Notes: generated by a model not told the origin, from the letters alone. 64,000 bases of DNA from Clostridia bacterium (GCA_017467085.1 JAFTSW010000008.1:1174-65173); one strand, 5' to 3'. Positions 21,520 to 41,407 are shown, counted from the stretch's first letter. A program made the numbers and translations.

Positions 21520-21520
21520 A

Positions 21521-26090: not shown

Positions 26091-26255
26091 TTACCGCATA
26101 AAAGCCTTACATCCTTCACGGAAAAAATGCTTGCAGGTAAAATAATAAAAAAAGCAGTACGCAAAAAATCGTACTGCAAAATAGCAAAAAGAGCCCTCGG
26201 CAGAGGACATAAGGGAGGTATGACAAGACGTGGGCGCGGCTGCACAACGCATCAT
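26091..26255 (-). CDS. candidate 54-codon leader peptide rich in Phe/Tyr
   Basis: AAGGAGG lies 8 nt upstream of ATGATG. Translation: MMRCAAAPTSCHTSLMSSAEGSFCYFAVRFFAYCFFYYFTCKHFFREGCKAFMR (10 Phe, 4 Tyr). It spans terminator T1 and stops 15 nt before T2. Confidence 0.4.
   Translation of the reverse strand: MMRCAAAPTSCHTSLMSSAEGSFCYFAVRFFAYCFFYYFTCKHFFREGCKAFMR
26147..26177 (-). terminator. leader terminator T1 inside the candidate leader ORF
   Basis: The minus strand reads GCAGTACG-attttttg-CGTACTGC followed by T7. Confidence 0.65.
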
Positions 26256-26283
26256 TTTTCATTCCTCCTTGATTTTTTGAATT

Positions 26284-26312
26284 ATTATACACCCTGAAAG
26301 AGGGTTTGTCAA
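26284..26312 (-). promoter_or_regulatory. sigma-A promoter of the aromatic supraoperon
   Basis: The minus strand reads TTGACA, 17 nt spacer, TATAAT. Confidence 0.65.
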
Positions 26313-26405
26313 GGGCTATTTGGCAATTATTTGCTGAAAAACAGCCTGTTTTTACATTTTTTTTCGCAGGGACGCAAAAAAATACAAAAAAATTCAAAAA
26401 ACCTC

Positions 26406-26434
26406 TTGACAAACCGCCGCGAGTGTGCTAAAAT
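26406..26434 (+). promoter_or_regulatory. sigma-A promoter of T-box leader 1
   Basis: TTGACA, 17 nt spacer, TGcTAAAAT. Confidence 0.65.
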
Positions 26435-26439
26435 CGTAC

Positions 26440-26698
26440 CAAATTTGAAAAGGCAATGACGAAGACGGGCTTCTTGGATAGCGGCAAAGAGAAACGGCGG
26501 TTGGTGCGAGCCGTAGCGCAGAGAGAAAGACCCTATCACTTCCGAGCCGGGAGCCTGAACGCAGTAGGGCTTCACGAGAGGCACAGCGTGAGTGTGCAGA
26601 GGTTGCTTGACCTCGTAAAGTGGCGTCTTATGGCGCAATTTGAGTGGTACCGCGAGTGTTTTCACCCGCCTCAAAGAATTTTCTTTGGGGCGGTTTTT
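26440..26698 (+). promoter_or_regulatory. T-box leader 1 (candidate specifier AUC, Ile)
   Basis: Stem I has an ATGA/GA kink-turn, an AGAGA bulge and the distal loop GTTGGTGCGAGCC. The T-box sequence AATTTGAGTGGTACCGCG lies at 26637..26654. The terminator is ccgcctcaaag/ctttggggcgg plus T5. ATC-A sits directly 5' of the lower-stem strand CTTC (26535..26538). Confidence 0.85.
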
Positions 26699-26732
26699 AT
26701 TTTATAAAAAATTTTTAAGGAGGATGTTCGTT

Positions 26733-29000
26733 ATGAATACAAACAACACGCAAAGTCGGTTATCGGAGATTGCAACCCGTATTAAGGAGCTGCGCGAGAT
26801 TATGGGCTTTTCCGTTGCGGAAATGACCGGGAAAACCGATGTGGACGAGGCTACCTATCTTTCTTATGAAAGCGGTACGGTGGACATTCCCTTCTCCTTT
26901 ATTCATAAGTGCGCGCTGGCATTCGGCGTTGAAATGACCGAGCTTTTGGAGGGCAGCACGGCAAAGCTCTCCACCTATACGGTCACAAGAAAGGGCAGAG
27001 GACAGGGAACCGCCAAGGAGGACGGCATCGATATTGCCAACCTGGCGCCCAAGTTCAAGGATAAGCTGGCAGAGCCCTACTACGTTACCTACGAGTATTC
27101 CCAGGCGCAGCAGAACAAGCCCATTCATCTGACCACCCACAGCGGCCAGGAATTTGACTTGGTGCTGAGCGGTAAGCTGAAAATCCAGGTCGGTGAGCAT
27201 ACCGAATTTCTGGAGGAGGGGGACAGCATCTATTACAATTCCTCCATTCCGCACGGTATGATTGCCGTAGACGGCAAGGACTGCACCTTCGTTGCGGTGG
27301 TTATGTCGGGCGACAACTCCAATGAAACGGTTGTCAGAAAGAGCGTTATCGCCGCCAAGAAGAGCGAGGCGCTGGTTTGCGAAAAATTCCTTGACGTAAA
27401 GGAAAACGCAAACGGGGAATTGGAGAGCATCCGCTTCAAGAATACCGAAAGCTTCAACTTTGGCTTCGACATCGTGGACGGCATTGCAGACAGCTATCCC
27501 GAAAAGCTGGCTATGCTTCATCTTGACAGAAACAAGAACGAGCGCCGCTTCACCTTCAAGGATATCAAGAAGGCGTCCAACCAGGTGGCAAACTATTTCA
27601 CCTCCCTTGGCATCAAGCGGGGCGATAAGGTTATGCTGGTGTTAAAGCGCCATTACCAGTTCTGGTTCTGTATGGTTGCGCTGCATAAGCTGGGCGCTAT
27701 CGCCATCCCCGCAACCAACCAGCTGAAGGAGCACGATTTTGAGTATCGCTACAATTCCGCAGGGGTTAAGGCAATCGTCTGCACCGCTGACGGTGATACC
27801 TATACCTATGCCCAAAGCGCCGCCAAAAAGTGTCCCCAGGTGGAAAAGCTTCTGATGGTCGGCGGTGTCAGAGAGGGCTGGCTTGATTTTGATAAGGAAT
27901 ATAAGCTCTTCTCCAGCAAGTTCGAGCGTCCCGCCGACTGCTCCGCGGGAGATGACCTTGCTCTGATGTTCTTCACCTCGGGTACCACGGGTAACCCCAA
28001 AATGGCAGCCCATAAGCATACCTACGCCCTGGGTCACTACGTGACGGCAAAATATTGGCACTGCTGTGAGCGTGATGGCTTGCATCTGACCATTTCCGAT
28101 ACGGGCTGGGGCAAATCCCTCTGGGGCAAGCTCTACGGCCAATGGCTCTGCGAGGGAGCGGTGTTCGTCTATGACTTCGATAAGTTTGACGAGAACGATT
28201 TGCTTCCTATGTTTGCCGAGTACAATATCACCACCTTCTGCGCGCCGCCCACGATGCTCAGAATGCTCATCCGCGGCGACCTTTCCAAGTTCGATTTGTC
28301 CTCTATCCACCATATGACCACCGCAGGCGAGGCGTTGAACCCCGAGGTGTTCAACCAGTTCAAAACGGCAACGGGTCTTGAAATTATGGAGGGCTTCGGG
28401 CAGACGGAAACCACCCTTGCTATTGCGAACCTTTACGGTATGACGCCCAAAATCGGCGCGATGGGTAAGGCAAATCCCCAGTATGACGTGGACGTGGTAG
28501 ACGCCGACGGCAAATCTCTTCCCGCGGGTGAAATCGGCGAAATCGTCATTCACACGGACAAGGAGGTTCCTTGCGGTCTGTTCAAGGAATACTACCGCGA
28601 CAGTGAAAAAACGGTGGACGCCTGGCACGACGGCCTGTATCACACGGGCGACACCGCTTGGCGGGATGAGGACGGCTACTTCTGGTACGTTGGGCGTGTG
28701 GATGACGTTATCAAGTCCTCGGGCTACCGCATCGGGCCCTTTGAAATCGAAAGCGTCATTATGGAGCTGCCGTACGTGTTGGAATGCGGCGTTTCCGCTG
28801 CTCCCGACCCCGTCAGAGGGCAGGTGGTCAAGGCAAGCGTTGTTCTCGTGAAGGGAACCGAGCCCACCGATGCGCTGAAAAAGGAAATCCAGAATTACGT
28901 CAAGGAGCATACCGCCCCCTACAAGTATCCCCGTATCGTGGTGTTCCGCGACTCTCTTCCCAAAACCATCAGCGGCAAGATTCAGAGAAACAAGCTTTAA
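26733..29000 (+). CDS. fusion protein: XRE-type HTH + cupin (PuuR-like) + medium-chain (ACSM/MACS-like) AMP-forming acyl-CoA synthetase
   Basis: ATG lies behind TAAGGAGG. aa 1-70 carry the HTH (RIKELREIMGFSVAEM...). aa ~110-200 carry the cupin (HSGQEFDLVLSGKLKIQVG...GDSIYYNSSIPHG). The remainder is the ligase, with FFTSGTTGNPK, GFGQTETT, YHTGD, SSGYRIGPFEIE and PKTISGKIQR. Confidence 0.85.
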   Translation: MNTNNTQSRLSEIATRIKELREIMGFSVAEMTGKTDVDEATYLSYESGTVDIPFSFIHKCALAFGVEMTELLEGSTAKLSTYTVTRKGRGQGTAKEDGIDIANLAPKFKDKLAEPYYVTYEYSQAQQNKPIHLTTHSGQEFDLVLSGKLKIQVGEHTEFLEEGDSIYYNSSIPHGMIAVDGKDCTFVAVVMSGDNSNETVVRKSVIAAKKSEALVCEKFLDVKENANGELESIRFKNTESFNFGFDIVDGIADSYPEKLAMLHLDRNKNERRFTFKDIKKASNQVANYFTSLGIKRGDKVMLVLKRHYQFWFCMVALHKLGAIAIPATNQLKEHDFEYRYNSAGVKAIVCTADGDTYTYAQSAAKKCPQVEKLLMVGGVREGWLDFDKEYKLFSSKFERPADCSAGDDLALMFFTSGTTGNPKMAAHKHTYALGHYVTAKYWHCCERDGLHLTISDTGWGKSLWGKLYGQWLCEGAVFVYDFDKFDENDLLPMFAEYNITTFCAPPTMLRMLIRGDLSKFDLSSIHHMTTAGEALNPEVFNQFKTATGLEIMEGFGQTETTLAIANLYGMTPKIGAMGKANPQYDVDVVDADGKSLPAGEIGEIVIHTDKEVPCGLFKEYYRDSEKTVDAWHDGLYHTGDTAWRDEDGYFWYVGRVDDVIKSSGYRIGPFEIESVIMELPYVLECGVSAAPDPVRGQVVKASVVLVKGTEPTDALKKEIQNYVKEHTAPYKYPRIVVFRDSLPKTISGKIQRNKL

Positions 29001-29108
29001 TGCATAGATGGGTGCGGTCTGCCTCTATTTGGACCGCACCCGACTCCCCCATCTGTTATATTTTTAATATAATGGATAAATTTGTATCCGAAAAATTGAA
29101 AAAAACAG

Positions 29109-29137
29109 TTGACAAATACTTGAAAGTGTGGTAATAT
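29109..29137 (+). promoter_or_regulatory. sigma-A promoter of T-box leader 2
   Basis: TTGACA, 17 nt spacer, TGgTAATAT. Confidence 0.65.
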
Positions 29138-29144
29138 CTCTTTA

Positions 29145-29417
29145 TAAAGCTATAAAGGCGTTGACGAAGAGTGCAGGTATGTGGCTTTTTCAGAGAAGCG
29201 GCGGTTGGTGCGAGCCGTTAAAATGCTATCCCCTGTTTGTAGCTTCCGAGCCGAGAGGAAGAAAGAGTATCGAGTAGAACCTCTCCGCGTTTGCTGCGTA
29301 AGTGCATACGGGTTGATTGACCCTGAGGGGCGGCTTTTGCCGCAATTTGAGTGGTACCGCGGGTTTTGATGTAACAAGCTCGTCTCAAAGTATTTATCTT
29401 TGTGGCGGGCTTTTTTT
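29145..29417 (+). promoter_or_regulatory. T-box leader 2 (candidate specifier GUA, Val)
   Basis: Same architecture as leader 1: TTGA/GA kink-turn, AGAGA, GTTGGTGCGAGCC. T-box AATTTGAGTGGTACCGCG lies at 29344..29361. The terminator is gctcgtctcaaag/ctttgtggcgggc plus T7. GTA-G precedes the lower-stem strand CTTC (29239..29242). Confidence 0.8.
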
Positions 29418-29443
29418 GTCGCCATAACAATCTTGGAGGAAAT

Positions 29444-31729
29444 ATGCAAGGAATTACGGGACTGGATTTGAAAATAAAGGAAATGGCAAACCGTATCCGT
29501 GAGCTTCGTGAAATCGAGGGCTTGACGGTGGTGGAGATGGCTGCCAAAACGGGTGTGTCCGAGGCAGAATATCTTGCCTGTGAAAACGGCGAGTCCGATT
29601 TGAACTTTGCCTTTATCTATCGCTGTGCCTCCGCCTTCAACGTGGACGTAACAGATATTATCGAGGGTAAAAGCCCCACGCTGAAGTCCTATACCTTAAC
29701 GAGAAGCGGACAGGGTCAGCGCATCGAAGAGGCGCACGGAATGACCTATTTCAACCTAGCATCCGCCTTCCGTAACCGTATCGCCGAGCCCCTGTACGTT
29801 TGCAGCCGTTATAGCGAAAAGGCGCAAACGGGGGACATTGAGCTGACTACCCACGATGGGCAGGAGTGCGATATCGTTCTCAGCGGTCACCTGAAAATTC
29901 AGATTGGCTCTCATATTGAGGTTCTCGGCCCCGGTGACAGCATTTATTACGATAGCTCCACACCTCACGGTATGATTGCCGTGGAGGGTGAGGACTGTCG
30001 CTTCTACGCCATTGTGCTGAATCCCACGGGCGAGCCCATTCCCGAGCTGCAGCCCTCCAAGGCGGTCCAGAGCCGTCCTGCCAAGCGTGACGATAAGGAA
30101 AGAGTCTATTCTGCCTTCGTAGACACCGAGGAGGACGAAAACGGTACCCCCACCTCTATTACCTTCAAAAACACCGACACCTTTAACTTTGCCTACGATG
30201 TAGTAGACAAAATTGCCGAGAAGGAGCCGAGAAAGCTTGCCCTCTTGCACGTGGCAAGCGATAAGACGGAAACCAGGCTTTCCTTCTCCGATATCAAGAA
30301 AAATTCCTGCCGCGCCGCCAACTACTTTAAGTCCCTCGGCATCAAGAAGGGGGACCGCGTGATGCTGGTGCTGGGCAGACACTACCAGTTCTGGTACGCC
30401 ATTCTTGGGCTTCACCGCCTGGGCGCTATCGCCATTCCTGCCATGAACCAGCTGCTGGACCACGACTTAGAATACCGCTTCAAGGCGGCAGGCGTGTCCG
30501 CTATCCTCTGTACGGGGAAGGGCGGCGTTTCCACCGAGGTGGATAAGGCAGAGGCGCAGCTTGGCAGAAGCCTTATCAAGATTATGGTAGGCGGCAAAAA
30601 GGAGGGCTGGCGCAGCTTTGACGAGGAATGCGCCTTATACAGCACCCACTTTGACCGTACCGCCGATACCCCCTGTGGCAACGATACGCTTCTGATGTTC
30701 TTCACCTCCGGCACCACGGGCTATCCCAAAATCGCCGTACATAACCATAAGTACCCCCTGGGTCACTTCCACACCGCCAAGTATTGGCACAACGTGGACT
30801 CGGACGGCTTGCACTTCACCATCTCGGATACGGGCTGGGCAAAGGCGCTCTGGGGCAAGCTCTACGGTCAATGGCTCTGCGAGGCGGCAACCTTTGTGTA
30901 CGATTTCGAGCGCTTCCACGCGGACGATATCCTTCCTATGTTCGCCAAGTACCAGATTACCACCTTCTGCGCACCGCCCACGATGCTCCGTATGATGGTC
31001 AAGGAGGACATCTCCAAGTACGACCTCTCCTCCGTCAAGCATATGACCACGGCAGGCGAAGCGCTGAACCCCGAGGTTTACCGCCAATTCGAGGAAGCCA
31101 CGGGCTTGCAGATTCTGGAGGGCTTCGGTCAGTCCGAAAGCACTATGATTATCGGAAACCTGCGGGGCGCGCCTCATAAGATTGGCTCTATGGGCAAGCC
31201 TGCCCCCATTTACGACGTGGAGCTGCTCTCCGCTGACGGCAAGCAGGTTCCCGTGGGTGAATCGGGTGAAATCGTTGTCAAGATTGCAAACGGCTCTCCC
31301 TGCGGACTCTTCGACGGCTATTACCAGGACGAGGAAAAGACCCGCGAGGTCAAGCACGATGGCTACTACCATACGGGCGACGTCGCCTGGCGTGACGAGG
31401 ACGGCTTCTATTGGTACGTCGGTCGTGTGGATGACGTTATCAAGTCCTCGGGCTACCGCATCGGGCCCTTTGAAATCGAAAGCGTTATTATGGAGCTGCC
31501 GTACGTCTTGGAATGCGGCGTTTCCGCCGCACCCGACCCCGTCAGAGGTCAGGTGGTAAAGGCGAGCATCGTGCTGGTGCCGGGCACCGTTGCCTCGGAC
31601 GCCCTCGTCAAGGAAATCCAGGACTACGTCAAGACCCATACCGCACCCTACAAGTATCCCAGAATTATCGTTTTCCGTGACGCGCTTCCCAAAACCGCCA
31701 GCGGAAAAATCCAAAGAAATCTGCTGTAA
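29444..31729 (+). CDS. paralogous fusion protein: XRE-type HTH + cupin + ACSM/MACS-like acyl-CoA synthetase
   Basis: ATG lies behind GGAGGA. Same three-domain layout as 26733..29000. The N-terminal ~250 aa are strongly diverged from the paralog, while the C-terminal ligase subdomain is nearly identical. Confidence 0.85.
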   Translation: MQGITGLDLKIKEMANRIRELREIEGLTVVEMAAKTGVSEAEYLACENGESDLNFAFIYRCASAFNVDVTDIIEGKSPTLKSYTLTRSGQGQRIEEAHGMTYFNLASAFRNRIAEPLYVCSRYSEKAQTGDIELTTHDGQECDIVLSGHLKIQIGSHIEVLGPGDSIYYDSSTPHGMIAVEGEDCRFYAIVLNPTGEPIPELQPSKAVQSRPAKRDDKERVYSAFVDTEEDENGTPTSITFKNTDTFNFAYDVVDKIAEKEPRKLALLHVASDKTETRLSFSDIKKNSCRAANYFKSLGIKKGDRVMLVLGRHYQFWYAILGLHRLGAIAIPAMNQLLDHDLEYRFKAAGVSAILCTGKGGVSTEVDKAEAQLGRSLIKIMVGGKKEGWRSFDEECALYSTHFDRTADTPCGNDTLLMFFTSGTTGYPKIAVHNHKYPLGHFHTAKYWHNVDSDGLHFTISDTGWAKALWGKLYGQWLCEAATFVYDFERFHADDILPMFAKYQITTFCAPPTMLRMMVKEDISKYDLSSVKHMTTAGEALNPEVYRQFEEATGLQILEGFGQSESTMIIGNLRGAPHKIGSMGKPAPIYDVELLSADGKQVPVGESGEIVVKIANGSPCGLFDGYYQDEEKTREVKHDGYYHTGDVAWRDEDGFYWYVGRVDDVIKSSGYRIGPFEIESVIMELPYVLECGVSAAPDPVRGQVVKASIVLVPGTVASDALVKEIQDYVKTHTAPYKYPRIIVFRDALPKTASGKIQRNLL

Positions 31730-31758
31730 AAATCAATCTAAGGAAAGGGAAGGGCAGT

Positions 31759-32418
31759 ATGCAGGAAAAAAGAATTACTATTTTTTCAGGGCACTACGGC
31801 AGCGGCAAAACCAATATCGCCGTCAATCACGCTCTTGCCCTGAGGGAAAAGCATTCACGGGTTGTCATTGCCGACATCGACATCGTCAACCCCTATTTCA
31901 GAACCAAGGATAGCGAGGCGCTTTTAGCGGAGCGCGATATCCGCCTTATCTGCTCGGCGTACGCCAACAGTAACGTGGATATTCCCGCCCTGCCCCCCGA
32001 AATCTACGCCGTGACGGACGATAAGTCCCTCTATGCGGTGCTGGACGTGGGCGGCGATGAGCGAGGCGCCCTCGCCCTTGGCAGATTGGTTCCCGCTATC
32101 AGAGAGGAGAACGATTACGAGATGGTGTTCGTCTTGAATCGCTTCCGTCCGCTGACACGGGATTTGGACGGTGTTTTCACCGTTATGCGTGAAATCGAGG
32201 CGGCGTGCGGACTCCGCTTTACCGCCCTGATTAACAACTCCAACCTTGGTGCGGAAACCACCGAGGAGGACGTGCGCGGCTCCGTTGCCTTCGCCAAGGA
32301 GGTTGCCGCCGCCGCCAATATTCCATTTTGGTATACAACGGTACACGAATCGCTCTGGCATCTGTTTTCCCAAGAGAGCGAGGACTACCGCCCCATATTA
32401 TTACAAAAACGTATGTAA
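31759..32418 (+). CDS. P-loop NTPase of the MinD/ParA/CooC-like (SIMIBI) type, function unknown
   Basis: The N-terminal ITIFSGHYGSGKTNIAVN is a deviant Walker A. The DIDIVNPYF and LDVGGDERG patterns are present. It sits between the ligase and the oxidoreductase genes. Confidence 0.6.
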   Translation: MQEKRITIFSGHYGSGKTNIAVNHALALREKHSRVVIADIDIVNPYFRTKDSEALLAERDIRLICSAYANSNVDIPALPPEIYAVTDDKSLYAVLDVGGDERGALALGRLVPAIREENDYEMVFVLNRFRPLTRDLDGVFTVMREIEAACGLRFTALINNSNLGAETTEEDVRGSVAFAKEVAAAANIPFWYTTVHESLWHLFSQESEDYRPILLQKRM

Positions 32419-32429
32419 AGGAGAATACC

Positions 32430-32636
32430 ATGGCAAAATTAACCTTCAAAGCAGAAAAATGCAAGGGCTGTGGCCTTTGTGTTGACGCTTGTCCCAAGCA
32501 GGTTCTGGCGCTTGACGCCGATACCATCAACCAGAAGGGACACCATCCCGTCAAGGCGGTCAACGAGGAGGCGTGCATTGGCTGTGCCTTCTGCGCCACC
32601 ATGTGTCCCGATTGCATCATTAAGGTAGAAAGGTGA
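32430..32636 (+). CDS. 2-oxoacid:ferredoxin oxidoreductase delta subunit (2x[4Fe-4S] ferredoxin)
   Basis: 68 aa with the clusters CKGCGLCVDACP and CIGCAFCATMCP. Confidence 0.85.
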   Translation: MAKLTFKAEKCKGCGLCVDACPKQVLALDADTINQKGHHPVKAVNEEACIGCAFCATMCPDCIIKVER

Positions 32637-32644
32637 GAAAAGCA

Positions 32645-33706
32645 ATGTCTGATAAGGTATTAATGAAAGGCAACGAAGCCATTGCCGAGGCCGCCATCAT
32701 CGCAGGCTGCCGTCATTATTTTGGCTACCCCATTACCCCCCAAACCGAAATTGCCGCTTATATGGCAAAGAGAATGCCCAAAATCGGCGGCACCTTCCTG
32801 CAGGCCGAGAGCGAAATTGCCGCCATCAATATGGTATACGGCGTTTCCGCAACGGGCAAGCGCGTGATGACCTCCTCCTCCAGCCCCGGAATTTCTCTGA
32901 AGGGCGAGGGACTTTCCTACTTAGCAGGTGCTGACCTGCCTGCCTTGGTGGTCAACGTGCAGCGCGGCGGCCCCGGTCTTGGCGGTATTCAGCCCTCCCA
33001 GAGCGACTATTTCCAGGCAACCAAGGGCGGCGCTCACGGTGACTTCCATATGCTGGTTCTGGCGCCTGCCTCCGTCCAGGAAATGGCAGAGTTGACGGTC
33101 AAGGGCTTTGCCCTGGCGGACAAGTACCGTATGACCTCTATGATTCTGGCAGACGGTACGATGGGTCAGATGATGGAGCCCGTTTCTCTCTCCTTCGATA
33201 TCGAGGAGGCTCCCGCAAAGCCCTGGGCTGTAACGGGGACCAAGCTTGAAAGACCCCACAACATCGTAAACTCTCTGTTCTTAAAGCCCGAAGAGCTGGA
33301 AAGAACCAACTTCGAGCGTTACGAGCGTTATAAGTACATCGAGGAAAACGAAGTGATGTACGAGGAATATATGATGGAGGATGCGGAAATCTGCGTGGCA
33401 GCCTTCGGCATTGCCGCCCGTGTTTCCAAGAACGCCATCAACGAGGCAAGAGCCAAGGGCATCAAGGTGGGTATGATTCGTCCCATCACCCTCTGGCCCT
33501 TCCCCACCAAGCAGTTTGCCGCGGCAGCAGAGAAGGTCAAGGCCTTCGTGTCCGTGGAGCTTTCTATGGGACAGATGATTGAGGACGTTCGCCTGGCAGT
33601 TAACGGCAAGGCGCCCGTTACTCTTTGCAACAGAGCAGGCGGTATGATTCCTGCGCCCGAACAGGTGCTGGCAGCGATTGAGGCCGCCAATAAAGGAGGT
33701 AACTGA
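32645..33706 (+). CDS. 2-oxoacid:ferredoxin oxidoreductase alpha subunit (VOR/KOR type)
   Basis: [31 protein letters not shown] is the typical N-terminus of the POR_N domain. Length and order fit a four-subunit OFOR. Confidence 0.85.
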
Positions 33707-33707
33707 A

Positions 33708-34451
33708 ATGGTAGTATTTGATAAACCCCATGCGCTTTCCGATGCGCCCCTGCATTATTGCCCCGGCTGTACCCACGGCATCGTGCATCGCCTGGTTGCC
33801 GAGGTAATGGACGAGCTTGGCATTGAGGGAAGAACCATTGGTATTGCCCCCGTTGGCTGCTCGGTTATGGCATATGACTATTTTAACTGCGATATGATTG
33901 AGGCTGCCCACGGCAGAGCTCCCGCCGTTGCGACGGGCGTAAAGCGCTCCGACCCCAATAACATCGTTTTCACCTACCAGGGTGACGGCGACCTTGCCTC
34001 CATCGGTATGGCAGAAACGGTACATAGCGCCGCCAGAAACGAAAATATCACCGTTATCTTTATCAACAACGCCATCTACGGTATGACGGGCGGACAAATG
34101 GCGCCCACCTCCTTGCCCGGACAGGTCACCCAGACCTCTCCCTACGGACGTGACGTTTCTCATTGCGGCTTCCCCATCAAGGTTTGCGAAATGCTTTCCC
34201 AGCTGGACGGCCCCGAGTATCTGGAGCGTGTAGCGGTCAACAACGTCAAGAACGTCAAGAACGCCAAGAAGGCTATCAAGAAGGCTTTTGAAAACCAGGT
34301 CAACGGAAAGGGCTTCTCCTTGGTAGAGGTCATTTCCTCCTGCCCCACCAACTGGGGTATGACGCCTGCTAAGGCTTTGGCTTGGATTGACGAGAAAATG
34401 ATTCCTTATTATCCTCTCGGGGTATATAAGGACAGAAGCGCAGGAAAGTAA
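33708..34451 (+). CDS. 2-oxoacid:ferredoxin oxidoreductase beta subunit (TPP-binding)
   Basis: YCPGCTHGI cysteine motif and the GDGD TPP-binding region. Confidence 0.85.
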
Positions 34452-34463
34452 GGAGGAAGGACG

Positions 34464-35006
34464 ATGAAAACAACCCAGTATTTGTTTGCAGGCTTTGGCG
34501 GACAGGGCATTCTGTTCGCAGGTAAGTTTTTGGCATACCAGGGACTCAACGATGGCAAGAACGTCAGCTGGCTCCCCTCCTACGGTCCCGAAATGCGTGG
34601 CGGTACGGCAAGCTGCAGCGTCATCATCAGCGATATTCCCGTTGGCTCTCCCATCGTGTCGAATCCCGACGTATTGATTGCGATGAACCTGCCCTCCCTG
34701 GATAAGTACGAGTCCACCGTTGCCCCCGGCGGCACCATCTTCGTGGATTCCACGCTGATTTCCCGTAAGGTTACCCGTACCGACGTGACCGTGCATTACA
34801 TTCCTGCCACTCAGATGGCATCCGACAACAAAACCCCCACCCTTGCCAATATGATTATTATGGGTAAGGTTCTGGCAGAAAGCGGCACCTTCGAGGATGA
34901 GGAAAAGGTGCTTGCCGCCCTGCAGAAGGTTATCTCCGCAAAGCGTGCCGATATGTTAGACGTCAACCTTGGCGCTCTTCGCCTCGGCAAGGATTATCAA
35001 GGTTAA
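34464..35006 (+). CDS. 2-oxoacid:ferredoxin oxidoreductase gamma subunit
   Basis: 180 aa with the FAGFGGQGILFAGK N-terminus typical of gamma subunits. Confidence 0.85.
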   Translation: MKTTQYLFAGFGGQGILFAGKFLAYQGLNDGKNVSWLPSYGPEMRGGTASCSVIISDIPVGSPIVSNPDVLIAMNLPSLDKYESTVAPGGTIFVDSTLISRKVTRTDVTVHYIPATQMASDNKTPTLANMIIMGKVLAESGTFEDEEKVLAALQKVISAKRADMLDVNLGALRLGKDYQG

Positions 35007-35040
35007 CAAGGATTATCAAGGTTAATAAGGAGAAGAAAAG

Positions 35041-36108
35041 ATGGAAATCAAAATCACCAGAAATCCTAACCCCGGTGTAAAGCCCGAGCCCTCCGTTCTG
35101 GGCTTCGGTAAATATTTCACCGACCATATGTTTATGATGGACTATTCCGCAGAGGAGGGCTGGCACGATGCCAGAATCGTCCCCTTCGGTCCTCTGATGC
35201 TCCATCCTGCCTGCACAGCCCTGCATTACGGAAGCGAAATCTTCGAGGGCTTGAAGGCATACCGCCGTGCTGACGGCAAGGTACAGCTCTTCCGCCCCAT
35301 CGAGAATATCCGCCGTATGAATCGCTCTGCCGAGCGTCTTTGCCTGCCCACCGTTCCCGAGGAGCTGGCAATGGAGGTTCTGACCAAGTTCATCTCCTTT
35401 GAACAGGATTGGACGCCCTCTGCCCCCGGCACCTCGCTCTATATCCGTCCCTTTATGTTCGGTAATGACGAAACCTTGGGTGTTCACGCGGTGAAGCACG
35501 CCACCTTCGTTATCATCACCTCTCCCGTAGGCAGCTACTATAAGGAGGGCATCAACCCCGTTAAGATTATGATTGAAGCAGACGATGTCCGCGCTGTTCG
35601 CGGCGGTACGGGTGAAGCCAAGTGCGGCGGTAACTACGCCGCCTCCAACCGCGCGGGTGAAAAGGCTGAAAAGGCCGGCTATTCTCAGGTGCTGTGGCTC
35701 GACGGTGTTGAGCGCAAGTACATCGAGGAGGTCGGCGCTATGAACGTTATGTTCAAGATTGACGGCGAGGTTGTTACCCCCGCGCTTCTCGGCTCCATTC
35801 TGCCTGGCATCACCAGAAAGTCCTGCCTTGAGCTTCTGCGCGCCGAGGGCTACCGTGTCAGCGAGCGCCGCTTGAGCATCGATGAGTTGGCAAAGGCATT
35901 GGAGGAGGGCAAGCTCGAGGAGGCTTGGGGCTGCGGCACCGCCGCCGTTATCTCTCCTATCGGTGAGCTTTGCTATATGGGCAAGAAGTACACCATCAAT
36001 AACGGCGAAATCGGCGAGGTGACTGCTCACCTCTACAATTCCTTGACGGGCATCCAGTGGGGAACCCTTCCCGATACCTATGGCTGGACTCTTCCCATTG
36101 AGGACTAA
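35041..36108 (+). CDS. ilvE: branched-chain amino acid aminotransferase
   Basis: 355 aa class-IV aminotransferase pattern (FEGLKAYR, EVGAMNVMF, GITR). Confidence 0.9.
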   Translation: MEIKITRNPNPGVKPEPSVLGFGKYFTDHMFMMDYSAEEGWHDARIVPFGPLMLHPACTALHYGSEIFEGLKAYRRADGKVQLFRPIENIRRMNRSAERLCLPTVPEELAMEVLTKFISFEQDWTPSAPGTSLYIRPFMFGNDETLGVHAVKHATFVIITSPVGSYYKEGINPVKIMIEADDVRAVRGGTGEAKCGGNYAASNRAGEKAEKAGYSQVLWLDGVERKYIEEVGAMNVMFKIDGEVVTPALLGSILPGITRKSCLELLRAEGYRVSERRLSIDELAKALEEGKLEEAWGCGTAAVISPIGELCYMGKKYTINNGEIGEVTAHLYNSLTGIQWGTLPDTYGWTLPIED

Positions 36109-36147
36109 AAAAACGCGAAAAAACCTAAAAAAACCTGAAAAAAGCAC

Positions 36148-36176
36148 TTGACAAAACCGAATGGCTGTGGTATAAT
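36148..36176 (+). promoter_or_regulatory. sigma-A promoter of T-box leader 3
   Basis: TTGACA, 17 nt spacer, TATAAT. Confidence 0.65.
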
Positions 36177-36184
36177 GCTCGTAT

Positions 36185-36449
36185 CAAATTTCAAATGCGA
36201 TGAAGGAATTATTTCTTTTCCTCATTTTACTGCAGAGAGTCGGCGGTTGGTGCAAGCCGATGTAAAGGGTTAAGAAAGTCTCATTCCGGAGCAGAATTTC
36301 CGAACCGAAAGTAAGAAATTCCGTATGCCTCGTTATCGGCTAATGGCTTGTTAGAGCCTGAGAGTGACCGTTTTTTAACGGTAATCAGGGTGGTACCGCG
36401 AAAAGTATTTTTCGTCCCTGAAGCGATTGCTTCAGGGGCGTTTTGTTTT
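36185..36449 (+). promoter_or_regulatory. T-box leader 3 (candidate specifier CUC, Leu)
   Basis: GATGA/GA kink-turn, AGAGAG, distal loop GTTGGTGCAAGCC. T-box AATCAGGGTGGTACCGCG lies at 36383..36400. The terminator is cgtccctgaagc/gcttcaggggcg plus TTTTGTTTT. CTC-A precedes the lower-stem strand TTCC (36280..36283). Confidence 0.85.
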
Positions 36450-36479
36450 ATTTTACCCATCACGAAAGGAAGAGAAACT

Positions 36480-37871
36480 ATGAAAAGAATTTTTGTGTCC
36501 GATATGACCTTGCAGAGCGGCAAGAGCCTGTCCTTCAAGGAAAAGATTGAAATTGTCAGACACCTGGACAAGCTAAACGTGGACGTTATCCATATGCCTG
36601 CCATCGTCAACGCCACGGCGGACGCTTTGCTTATCCGTACCGTTTCTGCCTTTGTTAAAAACAGCGCCCTTTCCGTTCCCGCGGGCTTTACCGAGGAGAG
36701 CGTGAGGGCAGCGTATGCCGCCGTTTCCGCGGCGCATAAGCCCCGCCTTTCCTTCTTTATGCCCGTTTCTGCCGTGCAGATGGAGTATTCCTTGCACAAG
36801 AAGGCGGCAAAAATGAAGGAGCTTGCCGCCGCCCTCTTTGCCCAAGCCGTTGGGTATGGGGTGGAGGTAGAGCTGGTAGCGGAGGATGCTACCCGTGCCG
36901 ATAAGGATTTCTTGCAGCAGATGATTCTGCTTGCCGTAGAAAAGGGCGTTTCCGTTATCACCCTGTGTGACGATGAGGGAGCCCGTCTGCCTAACGAGTT
37001 TGGTGCCTTCGTGTCCGAGGCTTGCGCCCTCGTTCCCAAGGACGCCGCTGTGCGTGTAGGCGTGCTTTGCCGCAATACCGTCGGTCTTGCTACCGCCTCG
37101 GTTGTGACGGCAATGCAGGCAGGCGCTGAGGAAATCAAGTGCTGTGTAGGCGAGGCTGACCTTCCCGATATCACCACCTTTGCGGGCGTTCTTGCCGCCT
37201 GTGGCGACAGATGCGGCTTCTCCTCTGCCATCAGCTATCACGAGCTGCAGCGCATCACCAAGCAAATCAAGTGGATTTGCGGCGAGGAGGGGGCAGGCGC
37301 CGTCAAGGGTTCCGTTGCCGAGGAAGCCCCTGCCGTTTACGATAAGAACGATAGCTTCGAGGCGATTTCCGACGCCGTTGTCAAGCTGGGCTATGACCTC
37401 TCCGAGGAGGATATGAAGCGTGTCTATGAGGAATTCGGGCGTGTTGCCGAAAAGAAAGCGGTAACGGGCAAGGATTTGGAGGCGGTGATTGCCAGCGTGG
37501 CAATGCAGGTGCCCGAAACCTATCGCCTTATCAGCTACGTGGTCAATAACGGCAATATCATTGCCTCCTCTGCTCAGATTAAGTTGGAGAAGGAGGGTAA
37601 GGAGATTGCGGGCATCGCTATGGGCGACGGTCCCATTGATGCCGCCTTCCGTACCTTGGAGCAGATTATCGGCTACCACTATGAGTTGGACGATTTCCAG
37701 ATTCAGTCCGTTACCGAGGGCAGAGAAGCCGTTGGCGCGGCGCTCGTCAAGCTCCGCGAGGGCGGACGGCTCTATTCGGGTAAGGGTATTTCCACCGACA
37801 TCATCGGCGCATCTATTCGCGCGTACATCAGCGCCGTCAACAAAATCGTTTATGAGGAGGCAAACAAATGA
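36480..37871 (+). CDS. LeuA/CimA-family homolog with degenerate catalytic motifs but intact C-terminal LeuA-dimer regulatory domain
   Basis: The N-terminal VSDMTLQSGKS replaces the canonical DTTLRDGEQ. The HxHxxD/GERAGN region reads LCRNT...GEADLPD. The C-terminal ~120 aa (GDGPIDAAFRTLEQI...IQSVTEGREAVGAALVKL...GISTDIIGASIRAYISAVNK) match the LeuA allosteric domain. Confidence 0.7.
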   Translation: MKRIFVSDMTLQSGKSLSFKEKIEIVRHLDKLNVDVIHMPAIVNATADALLIRTVSAFVKNSALSVPAGFTEESVRAAYAAVSAAHKPRLSFFMPVSAVQMEYSLHKKAAKMKELAAALFAQAVGYGVEVELVAEDATRADKDFLQQMILLAVEKGVSVITLCDDEGARLPNEFGAFVSEACALVPKDAAVRVGVLCRNTVGLATASVVTAMQAGAEEIKCCVGEADLPDITTFAGVLAACGDRCGFSSAISYHELQRITKQIKWICGEEGAGAVKGSVAEEAPAVYDKNDSFEAISDAVVKLGYDLSEEDMKRVYEEFGRVAEKKAVTGKDLEAVIASVAMQVPETYRLISYVVNNGNIIASSAQIKLEKEGKEIAGIAMGDGPIDAAFRTLEQIIGYHYELDDFQIQSVTEGREAVGAALVKLREGGRLYSGKGISTDIIGASIRAYISAVNKIVYEEANK

Positions 37872-40387
37872 AACTCTCTTTCTCCACAAAGGGATGGCAC
37901 GGAAAAAGCTTTGAAGAGCTTTGCGATATAGCCAAAAGCCTGCGCTTTTCGGGCGTAGAGCTGCATAACGTATCCAACCTTCTGTTCACTGCCTCTGATA
38001 GCGCCCTGCAGGAAAACGCCAGCGCCGCAACCCTGCGCCGCCTGTATGAATTAAAGCTGCAGATTCCCTGTATTGACAGCATTTGCGATATCGCCTCCGC
38101 CGAGGATGCCGAGGCGGCTAAGGCAGAGGTAGAAAAGTGCATCCGTATCGCCGCGCGTCTGCATATCCCCTACGTGCGTTTGCACGCCTTGAAGAGCGAG
38201 GGAGCAGACCCTGCTGCCGTTTCTGCCTTCTTGGAGGCCATGCTTCCCGTAGCGGAGGAAGCCTCCGTTGCCCTTCTGCTTGAAACCAGCGGACTTTTCT
38301 CGGATACGGCGGCTATGCGTGCTTTGCTCGATAGCTTTGCCTGCGATGACCTGGCGGCTCTTTGGGATACCTGCGCCACCTACTTTGACGGCGGCGAGGA
38401 GCCCGAAAAAACTATTGAGAACCTGGGCGCCTACGTCAAGCATATCCACGTGAAGGACGCCAAGAGGGAAGGGGATAGCATCGTCTATTCCTTGATGGGT
38501 GAGGGCGAGTACCCCGTTGCCAACCTCATTTACGCCCTGCGCTCGGTTAACTACAACGGCTTCGTTTCCTTGGAGTGGTCCCCTGCCTGGTGCGAGGAGA
38601 TTGATGACCTGGAAATCATTCTCTCCCAGTTCGAGAGCTATATGAGCCAGTGGAACGATACCTCCAAGGGCGATAACTCTCTCTATTACAACAAGGCGCA
38701 TACGGGTCGCTACGTCTGGAAGAAGGAGCTTCTGATTGAAGAAACCTTCCCCCGTGTGCTGGACAGAATGGTGGAGGAATTTCCCGACCAGCTGGCGTTC
38801 AAGTATACCACCCTTAACTATACCCGTACCTACTATGAATTCCGCAAGGACGTAGACGAGTTTGCCCGTTCTCTGATTGCGATGGGCGTTAAGGCTGGGC
38901 ATCACGTAGCAGTCTGGGCAACCAACGTGCCTCAGTGGTATATTGCCTTCTGGGCAACCACCAAGATTGGCGCCGTTCTGGTTACGATGAATACCGCCTA
39001 TAAGATTCACGAGGCAGAGTACCTCTTGAAGCAGTCCGATACCCATACCCTGATTATGGTAGACGGCTACCGTGATTCCAACTATTCCGCCATTATCGCC
39101 GAGCTTTGCCCCGAGCTTGCGGAAAAGAGCGCTGACGGAAAGCTCCACAGCAAGCGGCTCCCCTTCCTGCGTAACGTCATTACCGTAGGCTTCAAGCAGA
39201 AGGGCTGTATCACCTGGGAGGAGGCGCTGGAAAAGGCGGCATCCGTTCCCCAGGAGGAGGTTTTGCGCCGCGCCGCCCTGGTAGATAAGGACGACGTCTG
39301 CAATATGCAGTACACCTCGGGTACCACGGGCTTCCCCAAGGGCGTTATGCTCACGCATTATAACGTAGTCAACAACGGTAAGTGCATCGGTGACCGTATG
39401 GATTTGTCCACGGCAGACCGTATGATGATTCAGGTGCCTATGTTCCATTGCTTCGGAATGGTGCTGGCAATGACCGCCAGTATGACCCACGGCGCCACCC
39501 TTCTGCCCTTGCCCTATTACTCTCCCAAGCCCGCCCTTTCCTGCGTGCATAACGAGAGAATTACCGCCTTCCACGGCGTTCCCACGATGTTTATCGCTAT
39601 ACTGGAGCACGAGGATTTCCCCAAGACCGACTTCTCCTATATGAGAACGGGTATTATGGCGGGAAGCCCCTGTCCCATCTCGGTTATGAAGGACGTGGTG
39701 GAGAAGATGCATATGTCCGAAATCACCATCGTGTACGGACAAACCGAGGCATCTCCCGGCTGTACCATGAGCTCCACCGACGACCCCATCGAGGTGCGCG
39801 TCAGCACGGTAGGCAGAGCCCTGCCCGAAATCGAGTGTAAGATTGTAGACCCCGAAACGGGCGAGGAATGCCCCGACGAGGTAACGGGCGAGTTTGTTGC
39901 CCGTGGCTACAACATTATGAAGGGCTATTACAAAATGCCCAAGGCAACCCTGTCTGCCATTGATAAGGATGGCTGGCTCCATACGGGCGACCTTGCCTGC
40001 CGTACCCCCGAGGGCAACTACCGTATCACGGGCCGCTTGAAGGATATGATTATCCGTGGCGGTGAGAATATCTACCCCAAGGAAATTGAGGAATTTATCT
40101 ATACCCATCCCAAGGTCAAGGACGTGCAGGTTATCGGCGTGCCCGACGAGCAGTACGGCGAGGAAATTATGGCTTGCATCATCATCAAGGATGGCGAGGA
40201 AATGACCGTAGCGGAAATGAAGGAATATATCAACGCCCATATGGCGCGCCACAAGGTGCCGCGGTATATCGAGTTCGTTACCGAGTTCCCCATGAACGCC
40301 GCGGGAAAGATTCTCAAATACAAGATGCGCGAGGAAGCCATTGAAAAGCTTGGCTTGCAGAAAGCGGCAAAAGTGGTAACGGCATAA
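37868..40387 (+). CDS. fusion protein: xylose-isomerase-like TIM barrel (aa 1-~270) + FadD/YngI-like AMP-forming acyl-CoA ligase
   Basis: ATGA overlap with the upstream gene. The N-terminal domain has GVELH...LLLETSG...HIHVKDA...VSLEWSP. The ligase has YTSGTTGFPKG, GQTEASP, LHTGDL and GKILK. Confidence 0.8.
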   Translation: MKLSFSTKGWHGKSFEELCDIAKSLRFSGVELHNVSNLLFTASDSALQENASAATLRRLYELKLQIPCIDSICDIASAEDAEAAKAEVEKCIRIAARLHIPYVRLHALKSEGADPAAVSAFLEAMLPVAEEASVALLLETSGLFSDTAAMRALLDSFACDDLAALWDTCATYFDGGEEPEKTIENLGAYVKHIHVKDAKREGDSIVYSLMGEGEYPVANLIYALRSVNYNGFVSLEWSPAWCEEIDDLEIILSQFESYMSQWNDTSKGDNSLYYNKAHTGRYVWKKELLIEETFPRVLDRMVEEFPDQLAFKYTTLNYTRTYYEFRKDVDEFARSLIAMGVKAGHHVAVWATNVPQWYIAFWATTKIGAVLVTMNTAYKIHEAEYLLKQSDTHTLIMVDGYRDSNYSAIIAELCPELAEKSADGKLHSKRLPFLRNVITVGFKQKGCITWEEALEKAASVPQEEVLRRAALVDKDDVCNMQYTSGTTGFPKGVMLTHYNVVNNGKCIGDRMDLSTADRMMIQVPMFHCFGMVLAMTASMTHGATLLPLPYYSPKPALSCVHNERITAFHGVPTMFIAILEHEDFPKTDFSYMRTGIMAGSPCPISVMKDVVEKMHMSEITIVYGQTEASPGCTMSSTDDPIEVRVSTVGRALPEIECKIVDPETGEECPDEVTGEFVARGYNIMKGYYKMPKATLSAIDKDGWLHTGDLACRTPEGNYRITGRLKDMIIRGGENIYPKEIEEFIYTHPKVKDVQVIGVPDEQYGEEIMACIIIKDGEEMTVAEMKEYINAHMARHKVPRYIEFVTEFPMNAAGKILKYKMREEAIEKLGLQKAAKVVTA

Positions 40388-41214
40388 TGATACAAGGAAA
40401 ATATACGGTGATAGACGCCCATTGTCATATCTATCCCGAGAAAATCGCCTCCCGTGCCGTCAACGGAACGGATACCTTTTACGGGCTTTCCTCCTTTGGA
40501 GAGGGAACGGTCAGGCATCTGTTAGGGGTAGGTGAGGAATCGGGAATTGACGGGTATCTTGTCCAGTCTGTCGCCACCACACCGCACCAGGTTTCCAGCA
40601 TCAACCGCTTTATCGCCGAAGAGGTCAATCTCTATCGGGGTAAAATGGTAGGGCTTGGCACCCTGCATCCCGACTCTGCCGATATTCTGGGTGACGTGGA
40701 GGAAATTGAGGCGTTAGGGCTTCACGGCGTTAAGCTGCACCCCGACATCCAGCGCTTCCGCGCGGATGACGATGCCTGTGCCGAGATTTACGCCCTCTGT
40801 GAAAAGAAGGGACTCCCCATTCTGATGCACGCAGGGGACCACCGCTACGATTATTCCAACCCCAACCGCCTTGCCCCCGTCCTTGCGTCGCATCCCGCGC
40901 TATGTATGGTGGCGGCGCATCTGGGCGGCTGGTCTGTCTGGGAGGACGCCAAGGAAAAGCTCTCGGGCTTCTCCAACCTCTACGTGGATACCTCCTCCTC
41001 CTTCCCCTTTTTAATGGAAGGGGAGGCAAGGGAGATTATCGAGGCTTTCGGCGTTTCCCACGTCCTCTTTGCCACGGACTATCCTATGTGGCACCCCAAG
41101 GGGGAAATTGAGTATCTGCTTCGCTTAGGCTTCACGGATGAGGAATACAAAATGCTCTTTTCCGAGAATGCCAAGGCCGTTTTCGGTAAGGAAAATTTCT
41201 CCTCTCTTATTTGA
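40387..41214 (+). CDS. amidohydrolase-2 family metal-dependent hydrolase/decarboxylase-like TIM barrel
   Basis: TAATG overlap with the upstream gene. N-terminal VIDAHCHIYPE, later HGVKLHP, MHAGD and FATDYP. Confidence 0.75.
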   Translation: MIQGKYTVIDAHCHIYPEKIASRAVNGTDTFYGLSSFGEGTVRHLLGVGEESGIDGYLVQSVATTPHQVSSINRFIAEEVNLYRGKMVGLGTLHPDSADILGDVEEIEALGLHGVKLHPDIQRFRADDDACAEIYALCEKKGLPILMHAGDHRYDYSNPNRLAPVLASHPALCMVAAHLGGWSVWEDAKEKLSGFSNLYVDTSSSFPFLMEGEAREIIEAFGVSHVLFATDYPMWHPKGEIEYLLRLGFTDEEYKMLFSENAKAVFGKENFSSLI

Positions 41215-41216: not shown

Positions 41217-41407
41217 AAAAAGGGGCTGTCTCACTATTTCGTGAGGCACCAAAAAGGAGCCGAAAACGGCTCCTTTTTTGCCCCTGTTCGTTTCACTTTT
41301 GACGAAAAGCGAAACGAACGCACAAATTTTCTTCGAAAATTTTCTCATTTTGCGCCTTTCTTGACGCAAAATGAGACGGGCTGTCTCAAATGAGACAGCC
41401 CGTTTTT
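41217..41407. mobile_element. MITE-like intergenic element, copy 1 (short form)
   Basis: Terminal inverted repeats AAAAAGGGGCTGTCTCA / TGAGACAGCCCGTTTTT and four internal hairpins. A near-identical copy with an expanded second hairpin lies at 57604..57827. Confidence 0.65.

Follow-up and report, generated by a model that had tools for sequence, protein, structure and literature searches.

T-box leaders in front of acyl-CoA ligase genes point to a tRNA-gated salvage locus for branched-chain amino acids in uncultured gut and rumen Clostridia

Introduction

In Firmicutes, the T-box leaders of ilv-leu, leuA and aminoacyl-tRNA synthetase genes are built of a K-turn, a specifier loop, an AG bulge, a distal loop and a UGGN bulge, with a terminator that competes with an antiterminator. 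Uncharged cognate tRNA stabilizes the antiterminator and allows transcription to read through into the downstream unit. The genes switched on in this way increase the availability of the cognate amino acid and are those of the acetolactate/isopropylmalate pathway, synthetases and transporters. Here we report on a locus on the + strand (positions 26406-41214) of a 64,000-nt stretch of DNA from a Clostridia bacterium (GCA_017467085.1 JAFTSW010000008.1:1174-65173), which is called the window hereafter. This locus carries three leaders with the same elements and, as far as can be judged from the sequence, the same logic, whereas the genes behind them encode acyl-CoA ligases, a predicted 2-oxoisovalerate:ferredoxin oxidoreductase (VOR) and an apparently dead homolog of the 2-isopropylmalate synthase LeuA. 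We propose that it is likely to be a three-channel, tRNA-gated salvage system that converts 2-methylbutyrate to isoleucine, isobutyrate to valine and probably isovalerate to leucine.

Labelling experiments from the 1960s on established that rumen and gut anaerobes make isoleucine, valine and leucine from 2-methylbutyrate, isobutyrate and isovalerate, and ruminants are fed branched acids to stimulate fibre-degrading bacteria. To our knowledge, the genes for branched-acid carboxylation and their regulation stayed loosely defined. VOR enzymes are reversible and accept all three branched-chain substrates, and AMP-forming acyl-CoA ligases act as effectively irreversible activators that are not used for energy conservation. 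The chemistry predicted for the locus, from acid to acyl-CoA, 2-oxoacid and amino acid, is the same as in the classical reductive carboxylation of rumen and other anaerobes and in the VORs of methanogens and Thermococcales. Unlike in the classical work, the whole route is predicted in a single conserved locus, with its own ligase and its own tRNA sensor for each amino acid, so that candidate genes can be named for each step.

Two of the ligases are related to Macs, the medium-chain acyl-CoA synthetase of Methanosarcina acetivorans, which prefers 2-methylbutyrate and for which Trp259 has been described as an alternate pocket residue (PMC10455477), and to MbcS of Staphylococcus aureus, which selectively activates 2-methylbutyrate and isobutyrate and uses isovalerate poorly (PMC10026030). 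They are like these enzymes in the ligase domain and the pocket tryptophan, and differ from them by an extra helix-turn-helix (HTH)-cupin module, by T-box control and by a predicted role in amino-acid synthesis instead of the supply of lipid primers. The extra module is related to one-component regulators composed of an XRE-type HTH and a cupin domain (~185 aa), here joined to an adenylate-forming enzyme. A known example of an enzyme-regulator fusion is BirA. The LeuA-like protein has the two-domain layout of LeuA, whose gene likewise stands directly after a Leu T-box in many Firmicutes; T-boxes upstream of leuA have already been reported (PMC2494555). Unlike LeuA, every member of the LeuA-like group examined has lost the catalytic Arg/Asp motif and both His metal ligands.

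Results

Three T-box leaders with isoleucine, valine and leucine specifiers

The locus consists of three transcription units, each behind a promoter and a T-box leader. Unit 1 (Ile) encodes ligase 1, unit 2 (Val) encodes ligase 2, a P-loop NTPase, the four subunits of the VOR and the aminotransferase IlvE, and unit 3 (Leu) encodes the LeuA-like protein, ligase 3 and an amidohydrolase-superfamily protein. The promoters and leaders are as follows, R1 being a stem-I covariance model built from the three window leaders.

26406-26434, + strand: promoter of unit 1, TTGACA-17-TAAAAT with an extended -10 TG, 11 of 12 consensus matches (consensus scan)
26441-26703, + strand: T-box leader 1, specifier AUC (Ile), matched by RF00230; 115 bits with R1
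29109-29137, + strand: promoter of unit 2, TTGACA-17-TAATAT with an extended -10 TG, 10 of 12 matches; kept in 50 orthologous regions
29146-29420, + strand: T-box leader 2, specifier GUA (Val), matched by RF00230; 110.7 bits with R1
36148-36176, + strand: promoter of unit 3, TTGACA-17-TATAAT with an extended -10 TG, 12 of 12 matches
36185-36450, + strand: T-box leader 3, specifier CUC (Leu), matched by RF00230 above its gathering score

T-boxes were detected with the Rfam model RF00230, the whole window being scanned at gathering thresholds and positions 26000-30000 more permissively. Three matches, all on the + strand and full-length (model positions 1-219), were obtained at 26447-26676 (82.2 bits, E 1.8e-17), 29152-29390 (89.6 bits, E 2.2e-19) and 36191-36422 (127.2 bits, E 7.6e-28). 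The gathering score of 93 is reached by leader 3 alone; leaders 1 and 2 fall just under it, so that standard annotation would overlook both, and we judged them to be real because of their E-values and their conservation in orthologues. The GA motifs of the K-turn, the AGAGA bulge and the GGUUGGUGCRAGCC distal loop are recognizable in the sequence, and all three leaders contain the T-box sequence GUGGUACCGCG with a UGGU bulge. Terminator hairpins with a U-run were located by a consensus scan at 26666-26693 (leader 1) and 36413-36440 (leader 3), and folding placed that of leader 2 at about 29376-29412, again followed by a U-run. The initial annotation of this DNA, made from the bare sequence, had described three T-box leaders with K-turn, AGAGA bulge, distal loop, UGGU bulge and terminator, a description that RF00230 and the sequence elements bear out. 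It had also given all three promoters as TTGACA-17-TAnAAT, which holds for units 1 and 3 and not for unit 2, whose -10 box is TAATAT. The 3' ends of the promoters lie 7-9 nt before the leaders in all three units, and in the case of unit 1 the -35 element TTGACAAA and TG-TATAAT are kept across 73 orthologous upstream regions.

Relatives of the locus were collected by scanning species-representative genomes with cupin-domain patterns, which yielded at least 576 confirmed matching stretches, both ligase paralogues counted. The best 80 loci of these stretches, all from species-representative metagenome-assembled genomes (MAGs), form the comparative set, and many of the 80 are truncated by contig ends. 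All belong to uncultured Clostridia of the gut or rumen, their labels being Christensenellaceae, Acutalibacteraceae, Oscillospiraceae, Eubacteriales or Clostridia bacterium; sheep, goat, yak, water deer and rabbit are among the hosts. R1 found 151 leaders in the window and the 80 loci, 150 of which could be aligned to the model, and the specifier was read from this alignment, anchored on the lower stem of stem I. Over the 150 leaders, 97.6% of the stem-I cells are paired and compensatory changes occur in 15 of 15 pairs, against 26-48% paired in slid controls. In the window, the codon and the next base, directly 5' of the lower stem-I strand, are AUC-A, GUA-G and CUC-A in the cmscan alignment; the Ile, Val and Leu specifiers proposed earlier are therefore upheld by the alignment, and covariation supports the stem I on which they depend. 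The codon is followed by a purine in the window leaders (A, G and A, respectively) and by a pyrimidine in some relatives, which is C in 17 leaders of ligase-1 orthologues.

The pairing of specifier and gene is invariant among the 80 loci and never breaks. Leaders of ligase-1 orthologues carry AUC in 75 of 75 cases, those of ligase-2 orthologues carry GUA (46) or GUC (4), which accounts for 50 of 50, and those of LeuA-like units carry CUC (18) or CUG (4), which accounts for 22 of 22. The UGGU bulge fits a tRNA 3' end with the discriminator base A73, which is that of bacterial tRNA-Ile, tRNA-Val and tRNA-Leu. In 74/75 ligase-1, 50/50 ligase-2 and 21/21 LeuA-like leaders, the T-box sequence has U where the discriminator base would pair, and a T-run comes after it. 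No tRNA-Ile, tRNA-Val or tRNA-Leu gene was detected in the window, where the only tRNA gene is for tRNA-Gln, or in the 56 loci scanned.

After the stop codon of ligase 1, a GC-rich hairpin (29008-29042, GGGTGCGGTC...GGACCGCACCC) is not followed by a U-run, so that transcription of unit 1 may continue into the promoter and T-box of unit 2.

Organization of the locus in related genomes

Two blocks recur in the comparative set. The first has the order [T-box] ligase 1, [T-box] ligase 2, P-loop gene, VOR, IlvE, and the second, a separate module made of [T-box] LeuA-like gene, ligase 3 with its TIM barrel and amidohydrolase, lies upstream, downstream or, in one locus, inverted. Ligase 2 is present in 49 of the 80 loci, the VOR alpha subunit in 45 (44 of them with the P-loop gene alongside) and IlvE in 39, while 34 loci have ligase 1, ligase 2, VOR and IlvE jointly. 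The LeuA-like gene was found in 25 loci, and in 24 of these the module adjoins the VOR genes.

Some variants lack ligase 2. In loci L024 and L072 the Ile T-box and ligase 1 stand directly before the VOR genes, and in L056 a Val (GUA) T-box stands directly before ilvE, the P-loop gene and the VOR. This Val T-box (12360-12676) has a 44-nt insertion in distal stem I and scores 30.6 bits against RF00230. Just upstream of it lies the ligase 1 gene of L056, for which no T-box could be detected.

Ligases of the Ile and Val units

Protein families were assigned with Pfam and NCBIfam at curated cut-offs, and sequence searches of the PDB were added. The first two units open with paralogous ligases.

26733-29000, + strand: ligase 1, 755 aa; XRE-type HTH, cupin and AMP-forming ligase of the Macs/MbcS type (Pfam, NCBIfam, PDB)
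29444-31729, + strand: ligase 2, 761 aa; HTH-cupin-ligase architecture as in ligase 1, its paralogue (61% identity)

The AMP-binding and AMP-binding_C domains of Pfam occur in both proteins, preceded in ligase 1 by HTH_19/HTH_3 and Cupin_2. With the ligase domains as queries, the PDB entry 3ETC (Macs of M. acetivorans) was matched along their whole length with 647 bits for ligase 1 and 607 bits for ligase 2, the next match being at about 340 bits. The pocket tryptophan Trp259 of Macs is kept in both, where WGK(S/A)LWGKLYGQW aligns with WGKCVWGKLYGQW of Macs. Ligase 1 is predicted to act on 2-methylbutyrate and ligase 2 on isobutyrate.

Fourteen positions are fixed within each orthologue group and differ between ligase 1 and ligase 2. 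Three of them come just before the pocket tryptophan (Macs 240, 242 and 255), and at the last of these ligase 1 retains the Gly255 of Macs and ligase 2 has Ala. The other 11 fall in the N-terminal HTH-cupin module, although this module makes up only ~31% of the protein. The modules, of ~235 aa, are encoded at 26733-27440 (ligase 1) and 29444-30150 (ligase 2), and have many free-standing relatives of ~183-190 aa with 33-45% identity; we speculate that they derive from such free-standing XRE-cupin regulators. Concerning a possible operator for the HTH, no conserved palindrome was found in 73, 50 and 21 aligned upstream regions, whose shared elements are limited to the -35 and extended -10 boxes and an A-rich stretch upstream.

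The shared oxidoreductase and aminotransferase

Behind ligase 2, unit 2 continues with six genes.

31759-32418, + strand: P-loop NTPase, 219 aa, MinD/ParA/CbiA type; N-terminal P-loop weakly matched by CbiA and ParA of Pfam
32427-32636, + strand: VOR delta, 2x[4Fe-4S] ferredoxin-like, 69 aa; two CxxCxxCxxxCP motifs, Pfam Fer4 families
32633-33706, + strand: VOR alpha, VorB type; NF005507 at 536.5 bits against a cut-off of 399, Pfam POR_N and PFOR_II
33708-34451, + strand: VOR beta, thiamine diphosphate-binding; Pfam TPP_enzyme_C, start set from the ribosome-binding site and ATG
34464-35006, + strand: VOR gamma; Pfam POR, NCBIfam gamma-subunit models matching below their cut-offs
35041-36108, + strand: IlvE, class IV type II; NF009897 at 473 bits against 307 and TIGR01123 at 400 against 250

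The set of subunits is complete, with the delta ferredoxin, alpha, the thiamine diphosphate-binding beta and gamma. For beta and gamma, the NCBIfam matches are to general 2-oxoacid oxidoreductase models only, and remain below the cut-offs. We predict a four-subunit 2-oxoisovalerate:ferredoxin oxidoreductase with activity on branched-chain substrates, working in the carboxylating direction. That the second unit encodes a delta-alpha-beta-gamma 2-oxoacid:ferredoxin oxidoreductase together with ilvE, as first noted, is in agreement with Pfam, NCBIfam and the cysteine motifs. The P-loop NTPase, encoded between ligase 2 and VOR delta, matches known families solely over its P-loop, and the PDB sequence search returned no relative; it may be a maturation or cluster-insertion factor for the VOR.

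A LeuA-like protein and a third ligase

Unit 3 comprises three genes and a terminator.

36480-37871, + strand: LeuA-like pseudoenzyme, 463 aa; Pfam HMGL-like (degenerate TIM barrel) and LeuA_dimer
37868-40387, + strand: ligase 3, 839 aa; AP_endonuc_2, AMP-binding and AMP-binding_C, i.e. a xylose-isomerase-like TIM barrel fused to a FadD-type ligase
40387-41214, + strand: amidohydrolase-superfamily protein, 275 aa; Pfam Amidohydro_2
41373-41406, no strand assigned: two-way terminator with a 15-pair stem and T-runs on both strands, closing unit 3 and the converging comEC

In isopropylmalate synthase the arginine of the LRDGEQ motif binds the substrate and its aspartate binds the metal, whose other ligands are the histidines of an HxH motif. 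Alignment of the LeuA-like protein with the Neisseria enzyme showed that TLRDGEQ is replaced by TLQSGK and HCHN by LCRN; like the window protein, 26 of 26 homologues have lost both the RDGEQ motif and the HxH metal ligands. All NCBIfam models for isopropylmalate synthase stay below their cut-offs, the best being NF002086 (270 against 532 bits), with TIGR00973 at 242 against 599. In contrast, LeuA_dimer (PF08502) is matched with 110 bits over positions 2-130 of 131, and this C-terminal domain, with long invariant motifs, has a mean identity among homologues of 66%, compared with 40% for the barrel. As the catalytic motifs are lost and the LeuA_dimer domain is the best conserved part, the protein should not be a synthase; a T-box(Leu)-leuA operon may have left it behind, retained for its leucine-binding domain and reused as a sensor or scaffold.

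Ligase 3 scores 703 bits with NF009233, whose cut-off is 832, and its best PDB match reaches just 249 bits; judged by these scores it is of a family different from that of ligases 1 and 2, with no close characterized relative. The fusion with the TIM barrel is kept in many MAG proteins, one of which (MBQ8907096.1, from a Clostridia bacterium MAG) is identical to the window protein; the barrel itself is weakly conserved and has no invariant histidine. Isovalerate is our working guess for the substrate, being the most economical choice in view of the Leu specifier, the persistent linkage to the VOR and the poor use of isovalerate by MbcS-type enzymes. In the amidohydrolase, D10, H12, H14, K116, H148, H178 and D231 are invariant in 14 homologues, which corresponds to an intact HxH/K/H/H/D metal-site pattern; its PDB matches are weak, the best being the uncharacterized 3IRS.

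According to the initial annotation, each leader gates a different AMP-forming acyl-CoA ligase. Leaders 1 and 2 do so, whereas the first gene after leader 3 is the LeuA-like one. The same annotation had passed over the N-terminal HTH and cupin module of ligases 1 and 2, the P-loop NTPase gene between ligase 2 and the oxidoreductase and, in unit 3, the LeuA-like first gene, the TIM-barrel fusion of ligase 3 and the trailing amidohydrolase.

Genomic neighbourhood

The neighbourhood of the locus is ordinary chromosome. Downstream lie comEC, mgsA, recG, gdpP, rplI, dnaB, tilS, hpt and ftsH. On the other side, back to back with the locus, an aromatic operon (17857-26041, - strand) has the order pheA-aroB-aroC-aroE/K-aroA-tyrA-aroF; its products are 3-deoxy-D-arabinoheptulosonate 7-phosphate (DAHP) synthase, prephenate dehydrogenase, 5-enolpyruvylshikimate 3-phosphate (EPSP) synthase, a shikimate dehydrogenase/kinase fusion, chorismate synthase, dehydroquinate synthase and a chorismate mutase/prephenate dehydratase with an ACT domain. 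As the operon is complete, the organism is expected to synthesize aromatic amino acids de novo.

The region before this operon (26312-26042, - strand) contains a perfect TTGACA-17-TATAAT promoter that diverges from the promoter of T-box 1. It is followed by an AAGGAGG ribosome-binding site and a 54-codon open reading frame (ORF; 26255-26094, - strand), the second half of which contains 10 Phe and 4 Tyr codons. Three hairpins with T-runs precede pheA, two within the ORF (26208-26193 and 26177-26154) and one in the gap between the ORF and pheA (26075-26049). The ORF may be a Phe/Tyr leader-peptide attenuator of the pheA-aro operon. The Phe_leader model of Rfam gave no significant match in the region upstream of pheA (16.9 bits, E 4), and T-rich terminators could by themselves give rise to Phe codons.

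Discussion

In the scheme that we propose, uncharged tRNA-Ile, tRNA-Val or tRNA-Leu would stabilize the antiterminator of the cognate leader and thereby allow read-through into its own unit. Unit 1 would supply ligase 1, which would convert 2-methylbutyrate to its CoA ester, and unit 2 would supply ligase 2 for isobutyrate together with the P-loop NTPase, the four-subunit VOR and IlvE. The VOR would use reduced ferredoxin and CO2 to carboxylate the acyl-CoAs reductively to 2-oxoacids, which IlvE would transaminate to the amino acids. In unit 3 the third, unrelated ligase would probably feed isovaleryl-CoA to the shared VOR and IlvE, and the LeuA-like protein may sense leucine by means of its conserved leucine-binding domain. 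The HTH-cupin modules of ligases 1 and 2 may add a further, amino-acid-specific control at the protein level, a suggestion that is speculative. The synthetic direction is favoured because the genes would be induced by starvation for the product and because AMP-forming ligases are activators and not energy-conserving enzymes. No ilvBCD or leuBCD genes were found within the window.

The case for this scheme is strong for isoleucine and valine and plausible for leucine. One ligase induced per starved amino acid, all feeding a shared oxidoreductase and IlvE, had been put forward from the start. For Ile and Val the proposal is in line with the invariant specifiers, the similarity of the ligases to Macs and MbcS, and VorB and IlvE matches above the cut-offs. 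For Leu, the specifier (22 of 22) and the adjacency to the VOR (24 of 25) speak in its favour, while a dead LeuA in first position and a ligase of another family do not fit the simple form of the proposal. Since MbcS-type enzymes are poor with isovalerate, the presence of two Macs/MbcS paralogues for Ile and Val and of a ligase from another family for Leu would nevertheless make sense.

Several points weigh against the salvage scheme. MbcS (NF047394) is the best NCBIfam model for ligases 1 and 2, yet they reach 451.8 and 432.8 bits against a cut-off of 850 and are, on these scores, relatives of MbcS and not equivalogs; their substrates are assigned from homology and from the T-box specifier. 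What ties ligase 3 to isovalerate is its context, which makes this link plausible, and the dead LeuA, the TIM barrel and the amidohydrolase are superfluous for a plain step from isovalerate to isovaleryl-CoA. VOR and IlvE are encoded in the Val unit only, so that the Ile and Leu channels would need their basal or read-through expression. Lastly, the closest relatives among the matches listed (L001, 9667-12268) have the Ile T-box and ligase 1 as a lone unit, and the same arrangement is found in L003, L004, L006, L007, L011-L013, L019, L022 and L036. In these relatives ligase 1 shares 85-91% identity with that of the window and is surrounded by unrelated genes, among them those of major facilitator superfamily and purine permeases and of GNAT acetyltransferases, as well as uvrC. 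In L001 and the loci like it, neither ligase 2 nor VOR nor IlvE was found within 10 kb. The clustering seen in the window is thus not universal.

Among the other explanations, the one that best withstands the evidence keeps Ile and Val as above and lets the Leu unit recover leucine or a precursor from some other compound, such as an amide, ester or lactone, from which the amidohydrolase would free it for processing by the ligase fusion. It would account for an amidohydrolase that is a conserved member of the module with a complete metal-site pattern, for the distinct family of ligase 3, which is without a close characterized relative, and for the parts of the unit that plain isovalerate activation does not need. 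We consider it unlikely all the same. The module adjoins the VOR in 24 of 25 loci despite rearrangements, which suggests that it feeds this enzyme; a separate isovalerate ligase is to be expected given the poor use of isovalerate by Macs/MbcS types, and the data name no alternative substrate.

A second explanation is that the branched acids are scavenged to provide acyl-CoA primers for membrane fatty-acid synthesis; IlvE and VOR would then normally work oxidatively and derive the primers from amino acids, and the T-boxes would switch the cell to external acids once amino acids become scarce as a source of primers. This role has been shown for MbcS, the best curated family of ligases 1 and 2 (PMC10026030), and would suit the lone ligase 1 units, apart from VOR and IlvE, of the closest relatives among the matches listed. 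However, VOR and IlvE are co-transcribed with ligase 2 behind the Val switch, and to induce a valine-consuming route under valine starvation would presumably be counter-productive. T-boxes are known to govern the supply of the cognate amino acid, and neither the window nor the 80 loci show genes for fatty-acid synthesis linked to the cluster. For these reasons we regard primer supply as improbable for the main function; it is possible as a side use.

That unit 3 is an ordinary leucine operon with a working 2-isopropylmalate synthase, as HMGL-like plus LeuA_dimer in Pfam and isopropylmalate synthase models as best NCBIfam matches might suggest, is very improbable and was rejected because the catalytic residues are lost: the models remain far under their cut-offs (e.g. 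242 against 599 bits), RDGEQ and both His ligands are replaced in the window protein and all 26 homologues, and a ligase fusion and an amidohydrolase follow downstream instead of leuB, leuC and leuD. Hardly credible at all is a catabolic cluster in which IlvE and VOR, also a known oxidative route in amino-acid-fermenting anaerobes, would ferment branched-chain amino acids to acyl-CoAs, with the ligases reversed or recycling acids; we rejected it because both the regulatory logic and the type of ligase are wrong, T-boxes inducing at amino-acid scarcity, the opposite of a catabolic need, AMP-forming ligases conserving no ATP, and no phosphotransacylase/kinase pair, ADP-forming synthetase or CoA-transferase being linked to the cluster.

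The salvage scheme for Ile, Val and probably Leu joins elements of which some are long known, i.e. T-boxes and the reductive carboxylation of branched acids, and the regulatory principle itself is not new. Apparently new is the combination, for which we found no earlier description, of acyl-CoA ligases and a VOR under T-box control, a specifier of its own for every ligase, HTH-cupin-ligase fusions and a dead LeuA. T-box control of acyl-CoA ligases or of a VOR is undescribed in the searchable literature, including T-box surveys, the coverage of which is incomplete, so that a prior mention is possible. Within that limit, this agrees with the initial view that the regulon had not been described.

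A wider reading, which we offer tentatively and hold to be rather doubtful in its full form, is that this salvage locus has taken the place of the classical ilv/leu pathway, or provides a way around it, in a large uncultured clade of gut and rumen Clostridia, with a T-box and a recruited protein sensor controlling each channel. The sensor would be an XRE-cupin regulator fused to the ligase in the Ile and Val channels, and in the Leu channel a former isopropylmalate synthase of which only the leucine-binding domain would still serve.

The locus looks like the gene-level basis of a route from fermentation acids to branched-chain amino acids in many uncultured Clostridia of the gut and rumen. It provides a complete and testable set of candidate genes for a sixty-year-old physiological finding, in an arrangement that is conserved in many species-level genomes of abundant uncultured Clostridia, and in which the T-box specifiers serve as a built-in functional annotation of the amino acid served by each ligase. 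The T-box regulon would be extended to acyl-CoA ligases and a ferredoxin oxidoreductase, and two of the three leaders concerned escape the standard Rfam thresholds. The HTH-cupin-fused ligases and the catalytically dead LeuA with its conserved leucine-binding domain are worth a study of their own. Metabolic models of gut and rumen communities could improve, as they would predict branched-acid cross-feeding rather than amino-acid auxotrophy. If replacement of the ilv/leu pathway under a T-box and a protein sensor per channel were true, it would offer a gene-level explanation of the long-known requirement of such organisms for branched acids, and would clearly illustrate how an enzyme of biosynthesis can become an allosteric subunit.

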